From: a virus
UHGV virus genome: UHGV-0220142
Length of the DNA: 10,913 nt
Direction: 5' to 3' (one strand)
Part shown: positions 1 to 7,972 of the stretch, piece by piece
Layout of the letters: the number at the start of each line of letters is the position of its first letter
Position numbering within the stretch: position 1 is the stretch's first letter
The notes under the pieces: model-generated
Told to the model about the DNA's origin: nothing
Databases searched by the model: none
The model's input: only the letters and a program-made list of their open reading frames with translations
Program-made: the position numbers and the translations under genes

Positions 1-692
1 GTATTATTAATGGAAACATTCGTTCATTAATTATCTCTGGTGCGGCGGGTATTGGTAAAACGTATTCTTTAGATAAAGCTTTGAATAAAGCAAATGATAT
101 TGGATACATTGAGTATAAAAGCATTAATGGTAAAATCTCTGGTATTGGTCTTTATGAACAGCTTTGGAATAATCGTGAAGAGAATTCTGTCCTTTTGATT
201 GATGATGTGGATGTTTTCTCTGATATGGACATTCTTAATCTTCTGAAAGCTGCTCTGGACACTGGAGAGACCCGTAAAGTCTGCTGGAGCACCGCATCTT
301 CTTACTTAGAAGAAAAAGGCATTGACCGTGAGTTTGAATTTAAAGGAACGATTGTTTTTATCACAAACGTTGACATTGACCGCGAATTAGACCGTGGTAC
401 TAAACTTGCTCCACATTTACAAGCATTAGTGTCCCGCTCAGTTTATTTGGATTTGGGTGTTCACACTAATGAAGAAATTATGGTCAGGGTTGAAGATGTT
501 ATTCTTTCAACTGACATGATGCAAAAGCGCGGTCTTTCTGATGAAGAAACTTATAAAGCATTATCATGGATGAAAGTCAATGTTAATCGTTTACGCAATG
601 TTTCACTGCGTACTGCTCTTTATCTTGCTGACTTTATTATGACCGACAAAAACGGTTGGGAAGAAATTGCTGAAACGGTATTATTAAAATGA
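1..692 (+). CDS. P-loop (AAA-like) ATPase, 5'-truncated by window edge; reading frame begins at position 3
   Basis: Open frame from the window start with no stop until TGA 690-692. Walker A GAAGIGKT (codons at 39-62), Walker-B-like hhhhDD in VLLIDDVD, and FITN sensor-1-like motif. The track start at 81 is a TTG inside the frame, not the true start. Confidence 0.7.
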   Translation, partial: IINGNIRSLIISGAAGIGKTYSLDKALNKANDIGYIEYKSINGKISGIGLYEQLWNNREENSVLLIDDVDVFSDMDILNLLKAALDTGETRKVCWSTASSYLEEKGIDREFEFKGTIVFITNVDIDRELDRGTKLAPHLQALVSRSVYLDLGVHTNEEIMVRVEDVILSTDMMQKRGLSDEETYKALSWMKVNVNRLRNVSLRTALYLADFIMTDKNGWEEIAETVLLK

Positions 693-1408
693 AAAAATAT
701 TTTACTATCTATAAAACTGAAATATTAAATTTAAAGACAGGTATTAAGAAATACTATTATGGTCGACATATAACTAATAACATCAATGATTCGTATGTTG
801 GTAGTGGAAATTATATAGAACGTGTAAAAGTGTCAAATGACCACATATTATCAAAAACGGTTTTAGAAGTTTTTGATAATTATGATAAAATGGTACAAGC
901 TGAAATATTATATATCATGGCAGGTAAATTGAAATATGGAAAAAACTGTGTTAACCTGTCATACGGGGGTGAAGGAGGAAAGGTTGCAGATGAAACTAGG
1001 ATAAAATGCAAAAAGCATTCTATAAATTTATGGAAAAATCCTAATCATATACAGCATATGAAGAAAAAGATGAAAGAGGTCACATCCACGCCGGAAGCTA
1101 AATTAAACACTTCAATAAAAACTTCGCAACGATATAAGGACCCAGTTTTTGTTAGAAAAGTTAGTAATATTATTAAAAAGAAACTAAGCAATCCTGTAGT
1201 AAAAGAAAAGCATATTAATGGAATTAAAGCTGCAAAGCGTTCTCATTTAACTATATGGCAATATGAAGATGAATTATTCGAGCTTTGGAAAGAAACTAAA
1301 TATGGATGGAGAAAATTTACAAAGGAAGCTATAAAACACGGGTATCCAAATGAACCGTATCGTAGTATGGTATCAACTTTTCAGAAAAGACATTTAGAAG
1401 AATCCTAA
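689..1408 (+). CDS. GIY-YIG family homing endonuclease (seg-like), 239 aa
   Basis: N-terminal TIY-x-YYG, conserved Arg (YIERV), VFDN, Glu (QAEIL) and Asn (CVNLSYGGEGG) in the spacing expected for a GIY-YIG catalytic domain. Basic C-terminal half with periodic K/S/P-rich repeats resembling NUMOD-type DNA-binding modules. Start ATG overlaps the upstream stop (ATGA at 689-692) and has no SD, suggesting translational coupling. Confidence 0.8.
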   Translation: MKKYFTIYKTEILNLKTGIKKYYYGRHITNNINDSYVGSGNYIERVKVSNDHILSKTVLEVFDNYDKMVQAEILYIMAGKLKYGKNCVNLSYGGEGGKVADETRIKCKKHSINLWKNPNHIQHMKKKMKEVTSTPEAKLNTSIKTSQRYKDPVFVRKVSNIIKKKLSNPVVKEKHINGIKAAKRSHLTIWQYEDELFELWKETKYGWRKFTKEAIKHGYPNEPYRSMVSTFQKRHLEES

Positions 1409-1853: not shown

Positions 1854-2381
1854 ATGAATGCTAAAGATATTTTCAACTTGGTAAATTACAACGATGGTAA
1901 ATTTAAATCTGAAGCACAAAGCAAGTTCTTTAATGACATCTCAATTGGAGGTGAAATCACGGTTGATGGAGGACAAATTTATAAATCTCGTTGGAATTGG
2001 ATTGTTATCATCGATGAGATTGGTATTGTAGAAATTTACAAAAATACGAATAAAAATCGTACATTACGCTGGTCTCGTGATACTAACGAACAGTACAAAA
2101 AGGATAAAGCATCTAAGTTATCTCGTGTAACTCAAGAAGATATTAAGTTCATCAAGAAAGATATTTTGATGTATGATAACTTAATTGCTGAAGAGCAAGC
2201 TGTTATTGATAAATTTGATGAGATTAAAGCTTCTCGTGAAATTCCTGATTTTATGAAAGAATCAGTAAATGAACGATACACTCTCATTTCAGAGCGTATT
2301 GAAACTTACAAAAAGCAAAGAGCTGAACGCCAGAATACTCTTCGGAAATTTGAAGAACGGTTAAAGACGGTACTCGCATAA
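1854..2381 (+). CDS. hypothetical protein, 175 aa
   Basis: Long ORF with ATG 1854 preceded by GGAGGA (1841-1846). Codon usage is consistent with neighbouring genes. No recognisable motif. Confidence 0.7.
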   Translation: MNAKDIFNLVNYNDGKFKSEAQSKFFNDISIGGEITVDGGQIYKSRWNWIVIIDEIGIVEIYKNTNKNRTLRWSRDTNEQYKKDKASKLSRVTQEDIKFIKKDILMYDNLIAEEQAVIDKFDEIKASREIPDFMKESVNERYTLISERIETYKKQRAERQNTLRKFEERLKTVLA

Positions 2382-2436: not shown

Positions 2437-2844
2437 ATGAAACAGTTGATAATTAAAAGATTGAATTTATTGATATGTTGTTTATGTGTAGTAGTTGCAT
2501 ATGGTTATTACGCAATTAATGATTATATGCATTATAAAGATTATGATGTTACTGTAGTTAATACCCTTACAGGAACTCAAGGAAAGGGGTCTAGTTTATC
2601 GTTTATTGCTGTATATGAACTCAAAGACGGTTATAGATTTAGCGAATATATTTCACCGGAGATGTATTCTTCAATAGAAAAAGGCGATAATATTACTGTA
2701 AGTTTACGTCCTTTCGACGTAAAACAGACATGGTTTGATAATATTGTCTGGTTCTTTGGAATGGTATTAGTTCAATCTGTGTGTGGTGCTTATATAGTCT
2801 TTTCCATCATATTCTGCGTATTTAGTAAAATTGAAATTGAGTGA
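2437..2844 (+). CDS. small membrane protein with two predicted transmembrane segments, 135 aa
   Basis: Hydrophobic stretch LNLLICCLCVVVAYGYYAI near the N-terminus and FFGMVLVQSVCGAYIVFSIIFCVF near the C-terminus, flanking a ~75-aa polar domain. Preceded by a promoter-like element at 2384-2407. Confidence 0.65.
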   Translation: MKQLIIKRLNLLICCLCVVVAYGYYAINDYMHYKDYDVTVVNTLTGTQGKGSSLSFIAVYELKDGYRFSEYISPEMYSSIEKGDNITVSLRPFDVKQTWFDNIVWFFGMVLVQSVCGAYIVFSIIFCVFSKIEIE

Positions 2845-2851
2845 GGAAAAT

Positions 2852-3739
2852 ATGTCAGTAGTAATTAATAATGTCAATACAGTAATTAAATCTTTAGTTA
2901 ATAAAAAAATGAATGAATGGACTGTACTTCGTCGTGGAGAGCCAGATAAATTTTTTCATAGATTTAACCCAACTTTGGATTTGAATGTTATTGACAGAGA
3001 TGTTCATGCTGAAATTTTAGATAAGTTTAAAGTTGATATTGGATTTGGATTAGAAAAACATTTACAGCGAACAAACGGGTCTGGAATGAGTTTATCTAAT
3101 CGCATCATGAAAGCCCTTAATAAAATTGGAGCGTTGTCTCGTATTAATGCGAGTGAAATCCTTCGCAATTATAATAAAGGATATGACCTTTATGGTCGAC
3201 TAATGCCGAAATTATCATTCGATCAAATGATTGCGGATTTGTGGGAAAATCAACGACGATTATTAGCATTAGGCGCTCGATTAGCTAAAGGTCTAGATAA
3301 ACAAATGATTTTTAAGACCAATAATACAGAAGACCTTAAATGCTTTAAATTTAGTATTCGCGGCGATGATTATTATATCAGAGCTCGCTCTACAGATTAT
3401 GTTAATATGGGGCATCATCTCTGTTTAGCTTTTGAAGTTTTAAAAGAAGCTGGAACGTTAGAATATTCATCTGGTGCTAAATGTCCGATTGGTTCAAGTT
3501 GTATTTTAATTTATCGCCCGGATGAATCCAGTTCAACTAAATTGCCTACAAAACCTGTACCAGTTCGTAGTAACGAAAAACATTCTGAACAAATTGATTA
3601 TTTTAATAAACAGATTGAAGAGCTAAATATTTCTATTCAACAATATGACGATGAAATTTTCAGACTATCTGGATTGAGTAGTAAAGCTAAATCTGAGCGT
3701 GAAAAGTTAATTAAAATTGTCGATTTACTTAAATCTTAA
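2852..3739 (+). CDS. hypothetical protein with C-terminal coiled-coil-like tail, 295 aa
   Basis: Track ORF 2831-3739 begins at TTG. ATG 2852 is preferred because GAGG (2843-2846) precedes it. C-terminal ~40 aa show a heptad-like pattern (QIEELNISIQQYDDEIFRL...EREKLIKIVDLLKS). Confidence 0.7.
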   Translation: MSVVINNVNTVIKSLVNKKMNEWTVLRRGEPDKFFHRFNPTLDLNVIDRDVHAEILDKFKVDIGFGLEKHLQRTNGSGMSLSNRIMKALNKIGALSRINASEILRNYNKGYDLYGRLMPKLSFDQMIADLWENQRRLLALGARLAKGLDKQMIFKTNNTEDLKCFKFSIRGDDYYIRARSTDYVNMGHHLCLAFEVLKEAGTLEYSSGAKCPIGSSCILIYRPDESSSTKLPTKPVPVRSNEKHSEQIDYFNKQIEELNISIQQYDDEIFRLSGLSSKAKSEREKLIKIVDLLKS

Positions 3740-3747
3740 GGAACACC

Positions 3748-4767
3748 ATGAAAACTCGTTCTCAAATTGAAGATATGGTTCGTAATGCCAGCTATACTCG
3801 TAATGTTATGACATTTTTGTGCCAAAATAATTTAGACCCTGATAGAGTTAATAGTTCCATTCACTTTAAGTATATGAATAGCAGTGAATGGTTACGTCAT
3901 TTTAGTAAAGCGGGGTATATTACACAAATGACTGCTCGTGAGCAGCTCACCGATTTCTGTAAAACTATTGATTATAAAAATCCTCTATTTGTTCAAGGTG
4001 TTGGTCAGAGTAAGGTCGATTTATCATCTGGATTTTTCAATCCAAATCATTATCGTATTGAATGGAGATTTATTGCTCTATTCCGTAAACAATTAAAGCA
4101 AATTTTGTCAACAGCTAGTCGATTAAAAGGTTCTGACATTAATTTAAAGAACCTGAAATTTGATGGTTATACTCTTCAGATGGAAGTAAGACCATTAAAA
4201 GAAAATAACAGAACTGCACGAATTAGCTTTAAACCTAATACAAAAAATTCTCTTTCAATTTGCGAATGCCTTAAATCGCAGTTGACAGAAGCATTTAAGT
4301 ATATGGATGTTGTTGCCGCTGTTCAGTCTAAGATTTTACCTCGTTTTGAGCGATTTAAATTAGACACAACAACATATGAACTTGATATGATCGTTTCATT
4401 TAAATACGATTTTTTGAGAAAGGACGAAGCCCCGCAAGAGAAAAAGCAAGAAGTGCAAGATAACTTAAATTTATCTAATTACTTATCAAACGATCCTAAA
4501 TTTTGGATGTATAGTTCAGGCAATAATGATGCATGGAAATTTAATAAAGTGAATTTTCTTCCTATTGAAAATCCGAGTCTTAAACCTGTTGAAAAATGGC
4601 ACGCGGATGCGATTGAGAAGTCTCTTAAGGCAGTAGATGATGAACTTGTTAAAGCAACAAATGAAGTGCTAGAAGCTGAAAAGATGCTAGAAAAAGCTCA
4701 AGAAAAAGTCAAAAATCTCACGAAGCAACGTTCTAAACTGAACAATGCACTAAATGCACTAAACTAG
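3748..4767 (+). CDS. hypothetical protein with C-terminal coiled-coil-like tail, 339 aa
   Basis: ATG 3748 preceded by AAGGA. C-terminal ~50 aa are strongly heptad-like (LKAVDDELVKATNEVLEAEKMLEKAQEKVKNLTKQRSKLNNALNALN). Shares a K(Y/I)MDVV motif with the next gene. Confidence 0.75.
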   Translation: MKTRSQIEDMVRNASYTRNVMTFLCQNNLDPDRVNSSIHFKYMNSSEWLRHFSKAGYITQMTAREQLTDFCKTIDYKNPLFVQGVGQSKVDLSSGFFNPNHYRIEWRFIALFRKQLKQILSTASRLKGSDINLKNLKFDGYTLQMEVRPLKENNRTARISFKPNTKNSLSICECLKSQLTEAFKYMDVVAAVQSKILPRFERFKLDTTTYELDMIVSFKYDFLRKDEAPQEKKQEVQDNLNLSNYLSNDPKFWMYSSGNNDAWKFNKVNFLPIENPSLKPVEKWHADAIEKSLKAVDDELVKATNEVLEAEKMLEKAQEKVKNLTKQRSKLNNALNALN

Positions 4768-4796
4768 TTTACTTCGCCACAAGGATGTGGTATAAT
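4767..4796 (+). promoter_or_regulatory. early-promoter-like element: GTTTAC, 18-bp spacer, TGg-TATAAT
   Basis: GTTTAC 4767-4772 (overlapping the upstream stop codon), TGG 4788-4790, TATAAT 4791-4796. Lies 30-60 nt upstream of the SD and ATG of the 4825 gene. Confidence 0.45.
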
Positions 4797-4824
4797 GTTC
4801 TTACTTTCTACTGAGGAGATTAAT

Positions 4825-5751
4825 ATGACTCGTAAACATTATATTGATTATTTTGACAGTCTTATTACTAAACACCGCAATTATCAGATCGGACACAGAG
4901 CAGTAATCAATAATATTCTTCGTGATTTCCTTCAGTATGTTGGCCAGGAAAATCATATCTGTAAAGATACTCAGAACGCTTATTCTCATTCGTTAGGCAA
5001 TTTGCTTGAATGGTTTAAACGTTCTCGTATGTTATCTTCTACTGTAGCTCGTGATAACATTAAAAACTTTATGAAGCCGAGCTTCATTAAAACTGCGACA
5101 TCTATAACTGATTTGGTTGAATTTACTATTATTAACGATGTTAAAAAGACCCATTTGGCTGATTGGTTATCTACCATTCCTGAAACTAAATTTGCTAATA
5201 AATTTGCTTGTCAATTCAATACTCAAGTGAATATGCTTTTTAAGCATGCTCGCAAACTGTTTACCGCGGGCGATGACCGTACAAATACAGTTCATGTTAA
5301 GGACTGGGTTATTGCTGATGAAGTAACACACAAGCCAGGTGGTTCATCAGTATTAATTAATATCCAGGTTCCTTATTATTACTCGCGTAATCTTGGCACC
5401 ATGACAGCTAAAGAAATTAATAAGCACAACAAAACTATTCGTTCGTTGTCTTATAAACTCCGCATGATGTTAAAAATTATGGACGTAGTGGAAATGTATG
5501 ACGAAACCGAAGATAATGGTTCAATGTTATACAGTTCACGCATTCTAATTAAACTGAAGAACCCTAATACATATAAGACAGTTGTAAAAGAGCCTAAAGT
5601 AGAAAAGGTTGATAATTTGAGTGAAGAACGTGAATATCTCAATGCCCGTTTGATTGAAGTTGAAGCCCAAATTGCAGAACACACCAAATTGTTAAAAGCT
5701 CTTAATGCAAAAGCAAATGGTTTACGTAATGCTATTGAGGTATTGAAATGA
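4825..5751 (+). CDS. hypothetical protein with C-terminal coiled-coil-like tail, 308 aa
   Basis: Track ORF starts at ATG 4795, which lies inside the TATAAT of a promoter-like element. ATG 4825 is preferred because GAGGAG (4813-4818) sits 6 nt upstream. C-terminal tail is heptad-like ([44 protein letters not shown]). Confidence 0.7.
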   Translation: MTRKHYIDYFDSLITKHRNYQIGHRAVINNILRDFLQYVGQENHICKDTQNAYSHSLGNLLEWFKRSRMLSSTVARDNIKNFMKPSFIKTATSITDLVEFTIINDVKKTHLADWLSTIPETKFANKFACQFNTQVNMLFKHARKLFTAGDDRTNTVHVKDWVIADEVTHKPGGSSVLINIQVPYYYSRNLGTMTAKEINKHNKTIRSLSYKLRMMLKIMDVVEMYDETEDNGSMLYSSRILIKLKNPNTYKTVVKEPKVEKVDNLSEEREYLNARLIEVEAQIAEHTKLLKALNAKANGLRNAIEVLK

Positions 5752-6137
5752 AAAAGCGTTTATTAGAAGACATTGCAGCTTCAAGTAATTCTAGTCTAAT
5801 TAAAATTATTATGGCTGGTGAAGAAGACGATTTGGAAATGCGTGGAAAGATTCACGGCTGCGACGATTTAGATTTTAAACCTCCAGCATGGGATGCTATT
5901 ATGGCTATGGTTGAACGACGTGAAAGAGCTTCTAAAAACGTTCCTAATTGCCCTGAATGCGGTACTGAACAAGTTCAATTGATTAACTGGCGTAAACCAG
6001 AGCTTGAATATAAATGCCGTCAATGTAAACATAAATTCAGTAAGCATGCTCCGGAAATGGTTAAATTGCCTGACTCTACTGAGTTCTTTAAAGAACTTGT
6101 GAGTGTTCAACCAATGCCTAATAATATTTTGGATTAA
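5748..6137 (+). CDS. hypothetical zinc-ribbon protein, 129 aa
   Basis: ATGA stop/start overlap with the upstream gene at 5748-5751. Two Cys pairs, CPEC and CRQC, separated by 17 residues (C4 zinc-ribbon-like). Confidence 0.65.
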
Positions 6138-6139
6138 AA

Positions 6140-6382
6140 ATGACCAAGCGTAAAGAATATATGGAGACTGCTGAAAAGGCAGTCCGTGAATTAGCAATAG
6201 CGTATTATAATGAACATGGTAAATTTCCTGATAGATACAGCGTGCTTAAATCTGCTTTAACTCGTTCATATAAAAATATGCTATCAGAAGTAAGTGATAT
6301 TATATACAAACATAAAGAACAAACGGGCCAAAGTCTTGATTACGACGAGACTTTTAAACAAGTACTAGGAATTAAGGAATAA
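6140..6382 (+). CDS. hypothetical protein, 80 aa
   Basis: ORF starts 2 nt after the upstream stop and ends 1 nt before the nrdC start. Tight packing supports it being coding. Confidence 0.6.
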
Positions 6383-6383
6383 T

Positions 6384-6647
6384 ATGTTTAAAGTATATGG
6401 TTATGATAGCAACATCCATAAATGTGTGTATTGCGATAATGCAAAACGTCTTTTGACTGTGAAGAAACAGCCGTTTGAATTTATCAACATTATGCCGGAA
6501 AAAGGTGTTTTTGATGATGAAAAAATCGCTGAGCTTCTGACTAAACTAGGCCGTGATACTCAAATTGGTTTGACAATGCCACAAGTATTTGCTCCTGATG
6601 GAAGTCATATTGGTGGATTTGACCAACTGCGAGAATATTTTAAATGA
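6384..6647 (+). CDS. nrdC: phage glutaredoxin/thioredoxin (NrdC), 87 aa
   Basis: 87-aa product with CVYC redox-active dithiol near the N-terminus (MFKVYGYDSNIHKCVYCDNAK...) and glutaredoxin-like length. Sequence matches my recollection of T4 NrdC. AAGGA SD 5 nt upstream of the ATG. Confidence 0.9.
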   Translation: MFKVYGYDSNIHKCVYCDNAKRLLTVKKQPFEFINIMPEKGVFDDEKIAELLTKLGRDTQIGLTMPQVFAPDGSHIGGFDQLREYFK

Positions 6648-6859
6648 TGCTCGAAGGAACTGACTATATTCACGATTACCGCGGAAGCGCGGTATATGTA
6701 GGTGATGAAGTTGCAGTTTATTATGGGTATGGAACTTTGATGACAGCAAAGGTTATTCAAATTAAAAATAATCGTGCTAAACTTGAAGTTTATTATTCTA
6801 ACGGTGAAAAGTCTATTTCTAAGTGGAAATACGGCGATTGTATGGTCAAACTGGGGTAA
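6644..6859 (+). CDS. hypothetical small protein, 71 aa
   Basis: ATGA overlap with the nrdC stop. Sits where T4 has the small 49.x ORFs between nrdC and pin. Confidence 0.55.
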   Translation: MMLEGTDYIHDYRGSAVYVGDEVAVYYGYGTLMTAKVIQIKNNRAKLEVYYSNGEKSISKWKYGDCMVKLG

Positions 6860-6861
6860 AT

Positions 6862-7032
6862 ATGATTTACGATATTAATGTAGCAAGAGCTCCGTCAATG
6901 GTTACTATTCCTGCTGAAGAACTAGATCGTCTTCATAAAATTGAAGAACTTCTTTGGGAAATTGAATCTGATTTGCCATCAGGATTAGAATCCTGGATTG
7001 ATTATGAAGAACTTAATAAATTGCGAAATTAA
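6862..7032 (+). CDS. hypothetical small acidic protein, 56 aa
   Basis: Track ORF starts at GTG 6823, inside the upstream gene. The in-frame ATG 6862, 2 nt after the upstream stop, is the more plausible start. Confidence 0.5.
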   Translation: MIYDINVARAPSMVTIPAEELDRLHKIEELLWEIESDLPSGLESWIDYEELNKLRN

Positions 7033-7042
7033 TTGGTGAAAA

Positions 7043-7363
7043 ATGACTATTGAAAATAAATTAGATGTTGATGCAGTTCTGAGCGAAATTATTGAAGACC
7101 ATGATGCATTTTCAGAAAACTATGATTTCGATTTTTCCGATTATCTTAAACCTGTCGAAATAGAAGACTGGGTGCAAGACGGCAAATGTCAATATCGTCA
7201 GTGTGTTTATTTTAGTCCAAAACATAATGTACATGTTTCCGTAAATGAATCTCGCTCAGGTTCTTACCATTCTGATTGGTATTATGCAGTTCCGACTGTT
7301 GAACTAGTCGAGCCCCGTGAACGTGTAGTAACTCAGACAATACGAGAATGGATTACGCTATAA
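7043..7363 (+). CDS. hypothetical acidic protein, 106 aa
   Basis: ORF with ATG 7043 preceded by GGTGA. No recognisable motif. Confidence 0.55.
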   Translation: MTIENKLDVDAVLSEIIEDHDAFSENYDFDFSDYLKPVEIEDWVQDGKCQYRQCVYFSPKHNVHVSVNESRSGSYHSDWYYAVPTVELVEPRERVVTQTIREWITL

Positions 7364-7416
7364 AACCCTGGTGGGCGGCTAGATGGGAAACTGTAGAGCC
7401 AGAGCCGGAAGAACCG

Positions 7417-7446
7417 GTTTACACTGATGAAGAAACATTATATAAT
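7417..7446 (+). promoter_or_regulatory. early-promoter-like element: GTTTAC, 18-bp spacer, TATAAT
   Basis: GTTTAC 7417-7422 and TATAAT 7441-7446, in the gap upstream of the pin-like gene. Confidence 0.4.
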
Positions 7447-7486
7447 GAACCAACGATAAATGACTTAATTGATATGGAGATGGGAC

Positions 7487-7972
7487 ATGATTACAGTAGA
7501 TAAGTGGTTTAGAATTAATCGTGCTGATACAGGGCTGTGTAATTACTGGCCGGAACTTAGTGCAGGTACTGTCTTTAAAGTTCGTGAACTTGCAAAAGAA
7601 TGTGAAGATGATATAGAGCCTGACACTGGAATTATTGAAATTGAACTTTCTGATGGAAAGATTATTAACATCTACGATAAGCCAATTACGTATTGGTGCT
7701 TGTGGAATACTGAATCAGTAGAAAATGGCGAAATTGAAGAAGTTGTAGATAGAACTAATCAAGTTGTTCAGAAGCCTAAAGCTGATTTTCAAGGTGAACG
7801 TATTTCATACGCATTAGCTAAATTAGCTGCACAAGAAAATAACGATGGCTATGAAGGAAATTTGATGCAAGCTGCGGCAGAATATATTGAATGGCTTGAA
7901 ACCCAAATTTCTTTTTCTGACCAAAAGATTCGGCAATATAAGCGATTGAATCAAATGTTTTACAATACTTGA
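7487..7972 (+). CDS. pin: candidate Pin-like protein (inhibitor of host Lon protease), 161 aa; assigned by position and size only
   Basis: Track ORF starts at TTG 7469. ATG 7487 with GGAGA 7 nt upstream gives a 161-aa product. It lies immediately upstream of gene 49, as pin does in T4. The sequence itself was not recognised. Confidence 0.45.
   Translation: MITVDKWFRINRADTGLCNYWPELSAGTVFKVRELAKECEDDIEPDTGIIEIELSDGKIINIYDKPITYWCLWNTESVENGEIEEVVDRTNQVVQKPKADFQGERISYALAKLAAQENNDGYEGNLMQAAAEYIEWLETQISFSDQKIRQYKRLNQMFYNT

Follow-up and report, generated by a model that had tools for sequence, protein, structure and literature searches.

The genes studied here lie in a window of 10,913 nucleotides (nt) from the virus genome UHGV-0220142. 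An early-gene block of the Tequatrovirus (T4-like) type, encoded wholly on the plus strand, makes up these 10.9 kb. Three of its consecutive genes, designated A, B and C, are identified by their homologues as the known T4 genes nrdC.6, nrdC.5 and nrdC.3. Comparisons of sequence profiles show that their products belong, together with NrdC.4 (designated D and absent from the window), to a single superfamily restricted to the Tevenvirinae whose C-terminal heptad tails are homologous, not convergent. We regard it as moderately probable that NrdC.3 to NrdC.6 form one tandem-duplicated superfamily with counter-defence heads and oligomerising tails, in which paralogues and alleles cover different targets. 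Modestly new in this picture are the uniting of four families in a single superfamily whose members share a tail, the series of copy numbers among related phages, and a recombination junction within the array.

The identity of the individual genes is straightforward. Gene A (2852..3739, plus strand; 295 amino acids, aa) is of the NrdC.6 type, being 98% identical to NrdC.6 of phage KMB39 and matching phrog_2257 with an E-value of 3e-153; the precomputed label PF26899 (Phage_T4_Y05B) is attached to 105 of its 105 homologues, some of which are 97-99% identical to A. Gene B (3748..4767, plus strand; 339 aa) shows 96% identity to KMB39 NrdC.5 and 93.4-93.8% amino acid identity to T4 nrdC.5 (AF158101), and it is positioned as in T4, between nrdC.6 and nrdC.4/3. 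Its product matches the Pfam family DUF7235 (PF23882) at 408.4 bits (cut-off 30), residues 1-339 falling on profile positions 1-307; a Pfam search gave no match of A or C to this model. Gene C (4825..5751, plus strand; 308 aa) is of the NrdC.3 type, with 97% identity to KMB39 NrdC.3 and only 62% to T4 NrdC.3. It matches phrog_1435 over its full length (E-value 1e-116), as does T4 NrdC.4 at 6e-168 for the same family, and its homologues bear the precomputed label PF26897. Pfam keeps PF26899, PF23882 and PF26897 as separate families, and PHROGs joins only NrdC.3 with NrdC.4. Weak Pfam matches to PHL, Phage_int_SAM_1, DUF4164 and CENP-F all stayed under the cut-off and were discarded, as was a tyrosine-recombinase match in NCBIfam (18.7 bits versus a cut-off of 279), a database that returned nothing meaningful otherwise. 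Sequence and profile searches of the PDB yielded no match, leaving the heads with no detectable relative of solved structure. The ATG codons at 2852, 3748 and 4825 that the original prediction had taken as starts, and hence the protein lengths given above, fit the homologues and the Shine-Dalgarno-like sequences upstream (GAGGA for A, AAGGA for B and GAGGAG for C); longer mechanically called open reading frames (ORFs) from 2831 and 4795 disagree with both and were rejected. A megablast search with window positions 2700-5900 recovered 654 phage records at 80-99% identity.

The original prediction had suspected that the tandem genes are distant paralogues. Pairwise, this relationship is silent: BLASTP found nothing significant among A, B and C, and the only two lineages that it linked were NrdC.3 and NrdC.4 (25% identity over 226 aa). 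Database homologues, together with loci annotated in phages of the genera Gaprivervirus, Dhakavirus and Mosigvirus, supplied the family alignments that were compared with HHalign. C and D matched at 97.5% probability (E-value 5.6e-12), and NrdC.5 and NrdC.4 aligned collinearly at 42-54% (E-value about 1e-4). Removal of the tails left the head profiles still matching (97.7% for C-D, 54% for B-D), which bears out the similarity of the globular domains, and comparisons of tails alone were weak. Against a merged profile of C and D, B reached 93.1% (E-value 3e-7) over its residues 49-186, with a score of 56.8 versus 14.5±2.1 for column shuffles, 22 for the reversed alignment and a block-shuffle maximum of 38.8. 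A reached 73.6% (E-value 3e-5) against merged B, C and D, with a score of 43.0 versus 15.4±2.5, 16.5 and 35.1 for the same three nulls.

A further link was provided by an exhaustive HMMER search with the NrdC.6 profile, which found 14 relatives among 1.84 billion representatives. Three of the 14 are full-length, distant metagenomic intermediates that mix motifs of the NrdC.6 and NrdC.5 types. In HHalign they match A at 98.7% (E-value 3e-16) and B at 97.6% (E-value 3e-12), in the latter case over 243 columns reaching the C-terminus. A combined with the intermediates matches B at 94% and merged B, C and D at 97.9% (E-value 4e-13) over 275 columns. A cross-check with HH-suite against a shallow alignment of B gave 84.6% (E-value 7e-6). 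Merged profiles and intermediates together thus place the paralogy at E-values of 3e-7 to 4e-13, beyond the nulls. The heads are as strongly diverged as had been proposed, those of A and C being only about 10-20% identical to NrdC.5.

Structure predictions are compatible with a common plan. In the AlphaFold2 model of A (overall predicted local distance difference test score, pLDDT, 78.7), a helical N-terminal part is followed by a beta-beta-alpha-beta-beta unit at aa 165-221, and a linker predicted with low confidence (aa 222-241) leads from there to the tail. The model of B, built on a shallow alignment of mostly 86-96% identical sequences, is poor outside the tail (pLDDT 43.9), and B was therefore left out of the fold searches. 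The two models agree in element order only, namely a long helix, beta, beta, helix, beta, linker and C-terminal helix. Foldseek with the A model retrieved 300-346-aa proteins of other T4-like genera, from the same phages to which the sequence intermediates point. In the family plan a helical N-terminal region, which is variable, leads into a conserved core; there follow a variable and probably disordered linker and a heptad tail of about 50-59 residues. Three core motifs are collinear in all lineages: (Y/L)(F/L)S...A+..L..F(G/K), hydrophobic..L..(G/A)(A/S)(R/K)L..G..R, and a helix bearing (Y/I)MD.V. The members also have in common the tail end pattern ..L..A(L/I)..LK.

The third of these motifs had first drawn attention as a K(Y/I)MDVV string, preceded by an SLS-containing stretch, in B and C. 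KYMDVV of B (aa 184-189; 4297..4314, plus strand) lies within a predicted helix (168-200), and KIMDVV of C occupies aa 217-222 (5473..5490, plus strand). B and C share two four-mers, compared with a shuffle mean of 1.4 (p about 0.42), which by itself is no more than chance. In HHalign both strings align to one and the same segment of NrdC.4, CMETVE, which makes the MDVV columns of B and C homologous, and two more collinear blocks are held in common, F.K.S.LLS..vAR(D/E).L.NF.K and F+.Q...IL..AS+L. The SLS part did not hold up: the triplet occurs upstream of both motifs at spacings of 13 and 7 residues, in non-equivalent alignment columns, and its sharing was rejected as coincidental.

The C-terminal tails extend over aa 242-295 in A (3575..3736; containing EIFRLSGL and ending KLIKIVDLLKS), aa 281-339 in B (4588..4764; starting (E)KWHADAIEKS and ending KQRSKLNNALNALN) and aa 259-308 in C (5599..5748), all on the plus strand. 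Each follows, as had been noticed from the letters, a heptad pattern, which runs in a single unbroken register through 50-59 residues, that is, 7-8 heptads with 0-1 Pro/Gly. Hydrophobic residues fill 80% (A), 88% (B) and 86% (C) of the a/d positions versus 35-46% overall. Coiled-coil propensity was assessed with our own crude tool, which scores 28-residue windows and is not COILS or MARCOIL, and with 100 shuffles per protein. The best window falls in the tail for A, B and C (z 2.9, 5.7 and 3.7), its score being reached by 2/100, 0/100 and 0/100 shuffles, respectively; the remaining products of the window mostly score near the shuffle mean, NrdC.8 excepted (z 3.1). AlphaFold2 likewise predicts helices in the tails, two in A (242-271 and 277-294; pLDDT about 70-92) and one of 56 residues in B (283-338; pLDDT 58-91), the latter being the sole confident part of the B model. 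The tail may serve as an oligomerisation module. NrdC.8 itself (1854-2381, plus strand; 175 aa) has a heptad-like C-terminal helix, with its best window at aa 145-172 and 0/100 shuffles reaching it, and gave no match to the hidden Markov models of the NrdC.3-6 families.

All family members occupy one and the same place in the genome, between nrdC.7/8 and nrdC.2, and the number of copies in this slot varies among related phages, as the original prediction anticipated, being one, three or four across Tevenvirinae genera. Kanagawavirus and Mosugukvirus have one copy, Mosigvirus has the combination 6-5-3, Gaprivervirus and Dhakavirus have 6-5-4, and most Tequatrovirus phages have 6-5-4-3; the window and EC121 have 6-5-3. 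In IME523 and PM2, genes for proteins of about 260 aa lie upstream of the single copy; these were considered and do not belong to the family.

The window preserves the junction at which its array shrank. A T4-type early promoter-like site at 4768..4796 (plus strand; TTTACT, 17 nt, TATAAT, with an upstream TG) is native to nrdC.4 and stands here directly before nrdC.3. Through nt 4827 the window follows the nrdC.5-nrdC.4 intergenic region, including the promoter-like site, the ribosome-binding site and the ATG, with 1 mismatch in 70 nt, and from nt 4836 it tracks the body of nrdC.3, with 2 mismatches in about 50 nt. Between them lies the octamer ACTCGTAA (4828..4835, plus strand), which nrdC.4 and nrdC.3 have in common at their 5' ends since the two encoded proteins both start with M(K)TR. 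The alignments identify gene C as a recombinant that carries the promoter, ribosome-binding site and first codons of nrdC.4, and they place the crossover by which nrdC.4 was lost inside ACTCGTAA. The native upstream region of nrdC.3, retained in T4 and KMB39, is homologous to its Mosigvirus counterpart, which points to deletion from an ancestor with four genes rather than to insertion. A 100-nt probe spanning the junction was intact in 26 of 501 records and split between two places in the others.

Several members elsewhere are broken, fused or duplicated, and these are signs of a plastic, dispensable array. T4 nrdC.6 as deposited (AF158101, about 4385-4500) has a 1-nt deletion, GAGCT-GATAT versus GAGCTAAATAT, and the resulting frameshift removes the whole heptad tail and leaves a product of 275 aa in place of 295, although the stretch that encodes the tail is intact in another frame; the deletion is either a real lesion of the laboratory strain or a sequencing error. 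In Shigella phage SP18 the NrdC.5-like gene is present as two ORFs (4038-4550 and 4565-4942), gp093 matching the head (E-value 7e-68) and gp092 the linker and tail (E-value 7e-37), and is probably a pseudogene or the product of a sequencing frameshift. The protein P0033 is a natural fusion of the middle part of NrdC.5 with the C-terminal half of NrdC.3, joined at FNKVN|MLFKH and containing both MDVV motifs, and P0037 (378 aa, from Shigella phage Sf25) is an NrdC.6 in which about 83 residues are duplicated internally.

The functional part of our interpretation starts from T4. An evolved T4 clone with compensatory deletions became unable to infect ECOR17, and infection was regained either by deletion of the host gene dsr1, which encodes a SIR2-domain defence protein, or by plasmid-borne expression of T4 nrdC.5 (Srikant, Guegler and Laub, eLife 2022, PMC9391042). 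The family is most likely one of counter-defence proteins because T4 NrdC.5 neutralises Dsr1, and the idea of a variable host target, raised in the original prediction, is compatible with this experimentally demonstrated role (PMC9391042). In addition, nrdC.1 was reported as a Septu inhibitor in a 2025 preprint (10.1101/2025.11.20.689424), and NrdC.1 of the window (6140-6382, plus strand) is 100% identical to that of T4. With nrdC.5 acting against Dsr1 and nrdC.1 against Septu, the block therefore behaves as an anti-defence island. A literature search on the mechanism of NrdC.5, on anti-DSR1 activity and on DUF7235 found nothing beyond the 2022 study (PMC9391042), DSR1 still being termed 'poorly characterized' in the literature of 2026.

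Rates of substitution and the distribution of alleles were also compared. Between the window and KMB39 the ratio of nonsynonymous to synonymous rates (dN/dS) is 0.24-0.25 for nrdC.5 and nrdC.3. It is raised, yet below 1, in the heads of NrdC.5 and NrdC.3 (0.35-0.39); it amounts to 0.04 in the NrdC.5 tail and to 0.04-0.10 in most neighbours. Relative to T4, the synonymous rate (dS) is about 1.0 for nrdC.3 and about 0.84 for nrdC.2, compared with 0.09-0.27 for the flanking genes. Along NrdC.3, identity to the T4 counterpart goes from 80-90% N-terminally through 25-55% in the central head to 75-100% in the tail, and across phages NrdC.3 falls into classes that are over 90%, about 75% or about 60% identical to that of the window. 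The deep NrdC.3 alleles look like old diverged cassettes that were swapped by recombination, and not like the outcome of rapid positive selection in situ; this pattern is compatible with an arms race without proving one. Together, nrdC.3 and nrdC.2 (window 4825-6137 versus T4 6637-7874) make up a cassette that is diverged relative to T4, with NrdC.2, which has zinc-ribbon-like CxxC pairs, being 129 aa long in the window and 104 aa in T4.

Tandem duplication in the slot between nrdC.7/8 and nrdC.2 gave rise to the superfamily, and recombination between paralogues alters copy number. The mechanism that we propose is drawn from the anatomy of the proteins, the NrdC.5 phenotype and the genomic neighbourhood. 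In it the head would serve to bind a protein of host immunity, and through the heptad tail the protein would dimerise or form a higher oligomer and so gain avidity for oligomeric targets. Between them, the paralogues and the deeply diverged alleles, above all those of NrdC.3, would deal with different variants of host defence; oligomerisation and diversification of targets are plausible parts of this picture. It is tempting to go further and to speculate that all four lineages inhibit distinct immune proteins, for instance different effectors of the SIR2/NADase type or other oligomeric ones, and that they are built on one head fold not described before and an interchangeable oligomerising tail. 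We put this more specific version forward only tentatively; under it the tails might permit mixed oligomers, so that the combination of paralogues and alleles sets host range.

Several observations weigh against the interpretation of the array as one counter-defence superfamily. Direct HHalign comparisons of A-B, A-C and B-C are weak (0.5-6% probability), and for this reason the link to A depends on the three metagenomic intermediates and on merged profiles. A common head fold is deduced from profiles and element order and not from superposed models because the model of B is poor. In the monomer model of A the tail forms a helix-turn-helix that could simply pack against itself. The experimental function is limited to NrdC.5 and consists of a genetic result, with no published mechanism or binding partner, and a dN/dS above 1 was seen in none of the genes compared.

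NrdC.5 might alone be a counter-defence protein, the other paralogues having moved on to unrelated tasks in host takeover or regulation or being in decay, with the tail merely inherited. Our literature search found a function for NrdC.5 only and nothing on NrdC.6, NrdC.4 or NrdC.3; identity among the heads is only about 10-25%; and members are often lost or broken, as illustrated by the deletion of nrdC.4 here, the frameshift in T4 nrdC.6 and the split SP18 copy. We nevertheless consider this scenario unlikely, given that each family is intact and under purifying selection (742, 539, 554 and 654 records; dN/dS 0.08-0.25), that the block holds two proven anti-defence genes, nrdC.5 and nrdC.1, and that counter-defence loci typically show variation in presence/absence as well as deep alleles. 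Less likely still is an arrangement in which the paralogues, through their similar tails, are subunits of one hetero-oligomeric complex and not independent inhibitors. The genes lie side by side, with 8 nt between nrdC.6 and nrdC.5 and no promoter-like site immediately upstream of either, and the homologous tails share their end pattern. However, one to four copies, in the combinations 6-5-3, 6-5-4 and 6-5-4-3, do not sit easily with an obligate complex, and plasmid-expressed NrdC.5 alone sufficed to restore infection of Dsr1 cells (PMC9391042). Convergence of three unrelated proteins on coiled-coil-like tails, with MDVV arising by chance, could account for the silent BLASTP comparisons, the chance level of shared four-mers, the weak tail-only profiles and the separate Pfam families, but is already disfavoured and very improbable in view of the matching tail-less heads, the merged-profile E-values far beyond reversed and shuffled nulls, the collinear motifs and the common syntenic slot.

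T4 NrdC.5 (DUF7235) is one of the closest known systems. Gene B is its orthologue at the same position, and A and C, as distant paralogues, share its domain plan. Anti-Dsr1 activity is established for the T4 allele only (PMC9391042), and the divergent heads of A and C, unlike NrdC.5, have no assigned function. Gene C belongs with T4 NrdC.4/NrdC.3 (phrog_1435, PF26897); unlike the T4 arrangement, that of the window is without nrdC.4 and has nrdC.3 as the 5'-end recombinant behind the nrdC.4 promoter. DSAD1 of SPbeta-like Bacillus phages, described in two reports as an inhibitor of DSR2 (PMC10973363, PMC10981675), is a functional analogue only, in that a phage protein opposes a defence-associated sirtuin. 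Modular gene shuffling in the hyperplastic regions of T4-type phages proceeds via promoter/stem-loop (PeSL) cassettes (Arbiol et al. 2010, PMC2839356; Comeau et al. 2014, PMC4122927). Like such regions, the nrdC block comprises variable early accessory genes, several of them behind early-promoter cassettes with a CCAAGGATG-type spacer, and its gene content is altered by short-homology recombination; unlike them, its crossover lies within the coding 5' ends of two paralogues and not in an intergenic cassette. Early-promoter-like sequences (GTTTAC...TGGTATAAT) are found in several intergenic regions, at 1797-1825, 2399-2407 and 4768-4796 of the window and at 7436-7468 of L008, part of them with the CCAAGGATG-type spacer and resembling PeSL cassettes (PMC2839356).

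The genes on either side of the array were also identified. Upstream, the order is NrdC.10, a homing-endonuclease-like ORF, nrdC.9, nrdC.8 and nrdC.7; downstream it is nrdC.2, nrdC.1, nrdC (glutaredoxin), small ORFs, pin, gene 49 and nrdD. The leftmost ORF (1-692, plus strand), for which nrdC.11 was considered and replaced by NrdC.10, comprises the C-terminal two-thirds of NrdC.10 with the Walker A sequence GAAGIGKT and runs off the window edge; in the mechanical ORF list it does not begin until an internal TTG at 81. The next ORF (689-1408, plus strand; 239 aa) overlaps the NrdC.10 stop by 4 nt and precedes nrdC.9. It matches the homing-endonuclease family phrog_314 (E-value 1.8e-30) and gave no Pfam match; at its position T4 and KMB39 have no gene, and EC121 has an ORF of 247 aa. 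A 69-aa ORF at 6823-7032 (plus strand) matches phrog_3402, 'antitoxin from a toxin-antitoxin system' (E-value 2.3e-39), and may be a further counter-defence-type gene of the block.

Although T4 serves as the reference phage, the majority of the genes in its nrdC.x block lack a function. The link to NrdC.5 makes the 'hypothetical protein' families NrdC.6, NrdC.4 and NrdC.3, with about 550-740 phage records each, testable candidates for counter-defence, and the conserved motifs and the tail are targets for mutagenesis. Natural genomes with one, three or four copies and diverged NrdC.3 alleles allow comparisons of host range that are relevant to phage therapy, and the junction in the window records base by base how such arrays shrink through recombination between paralogues.

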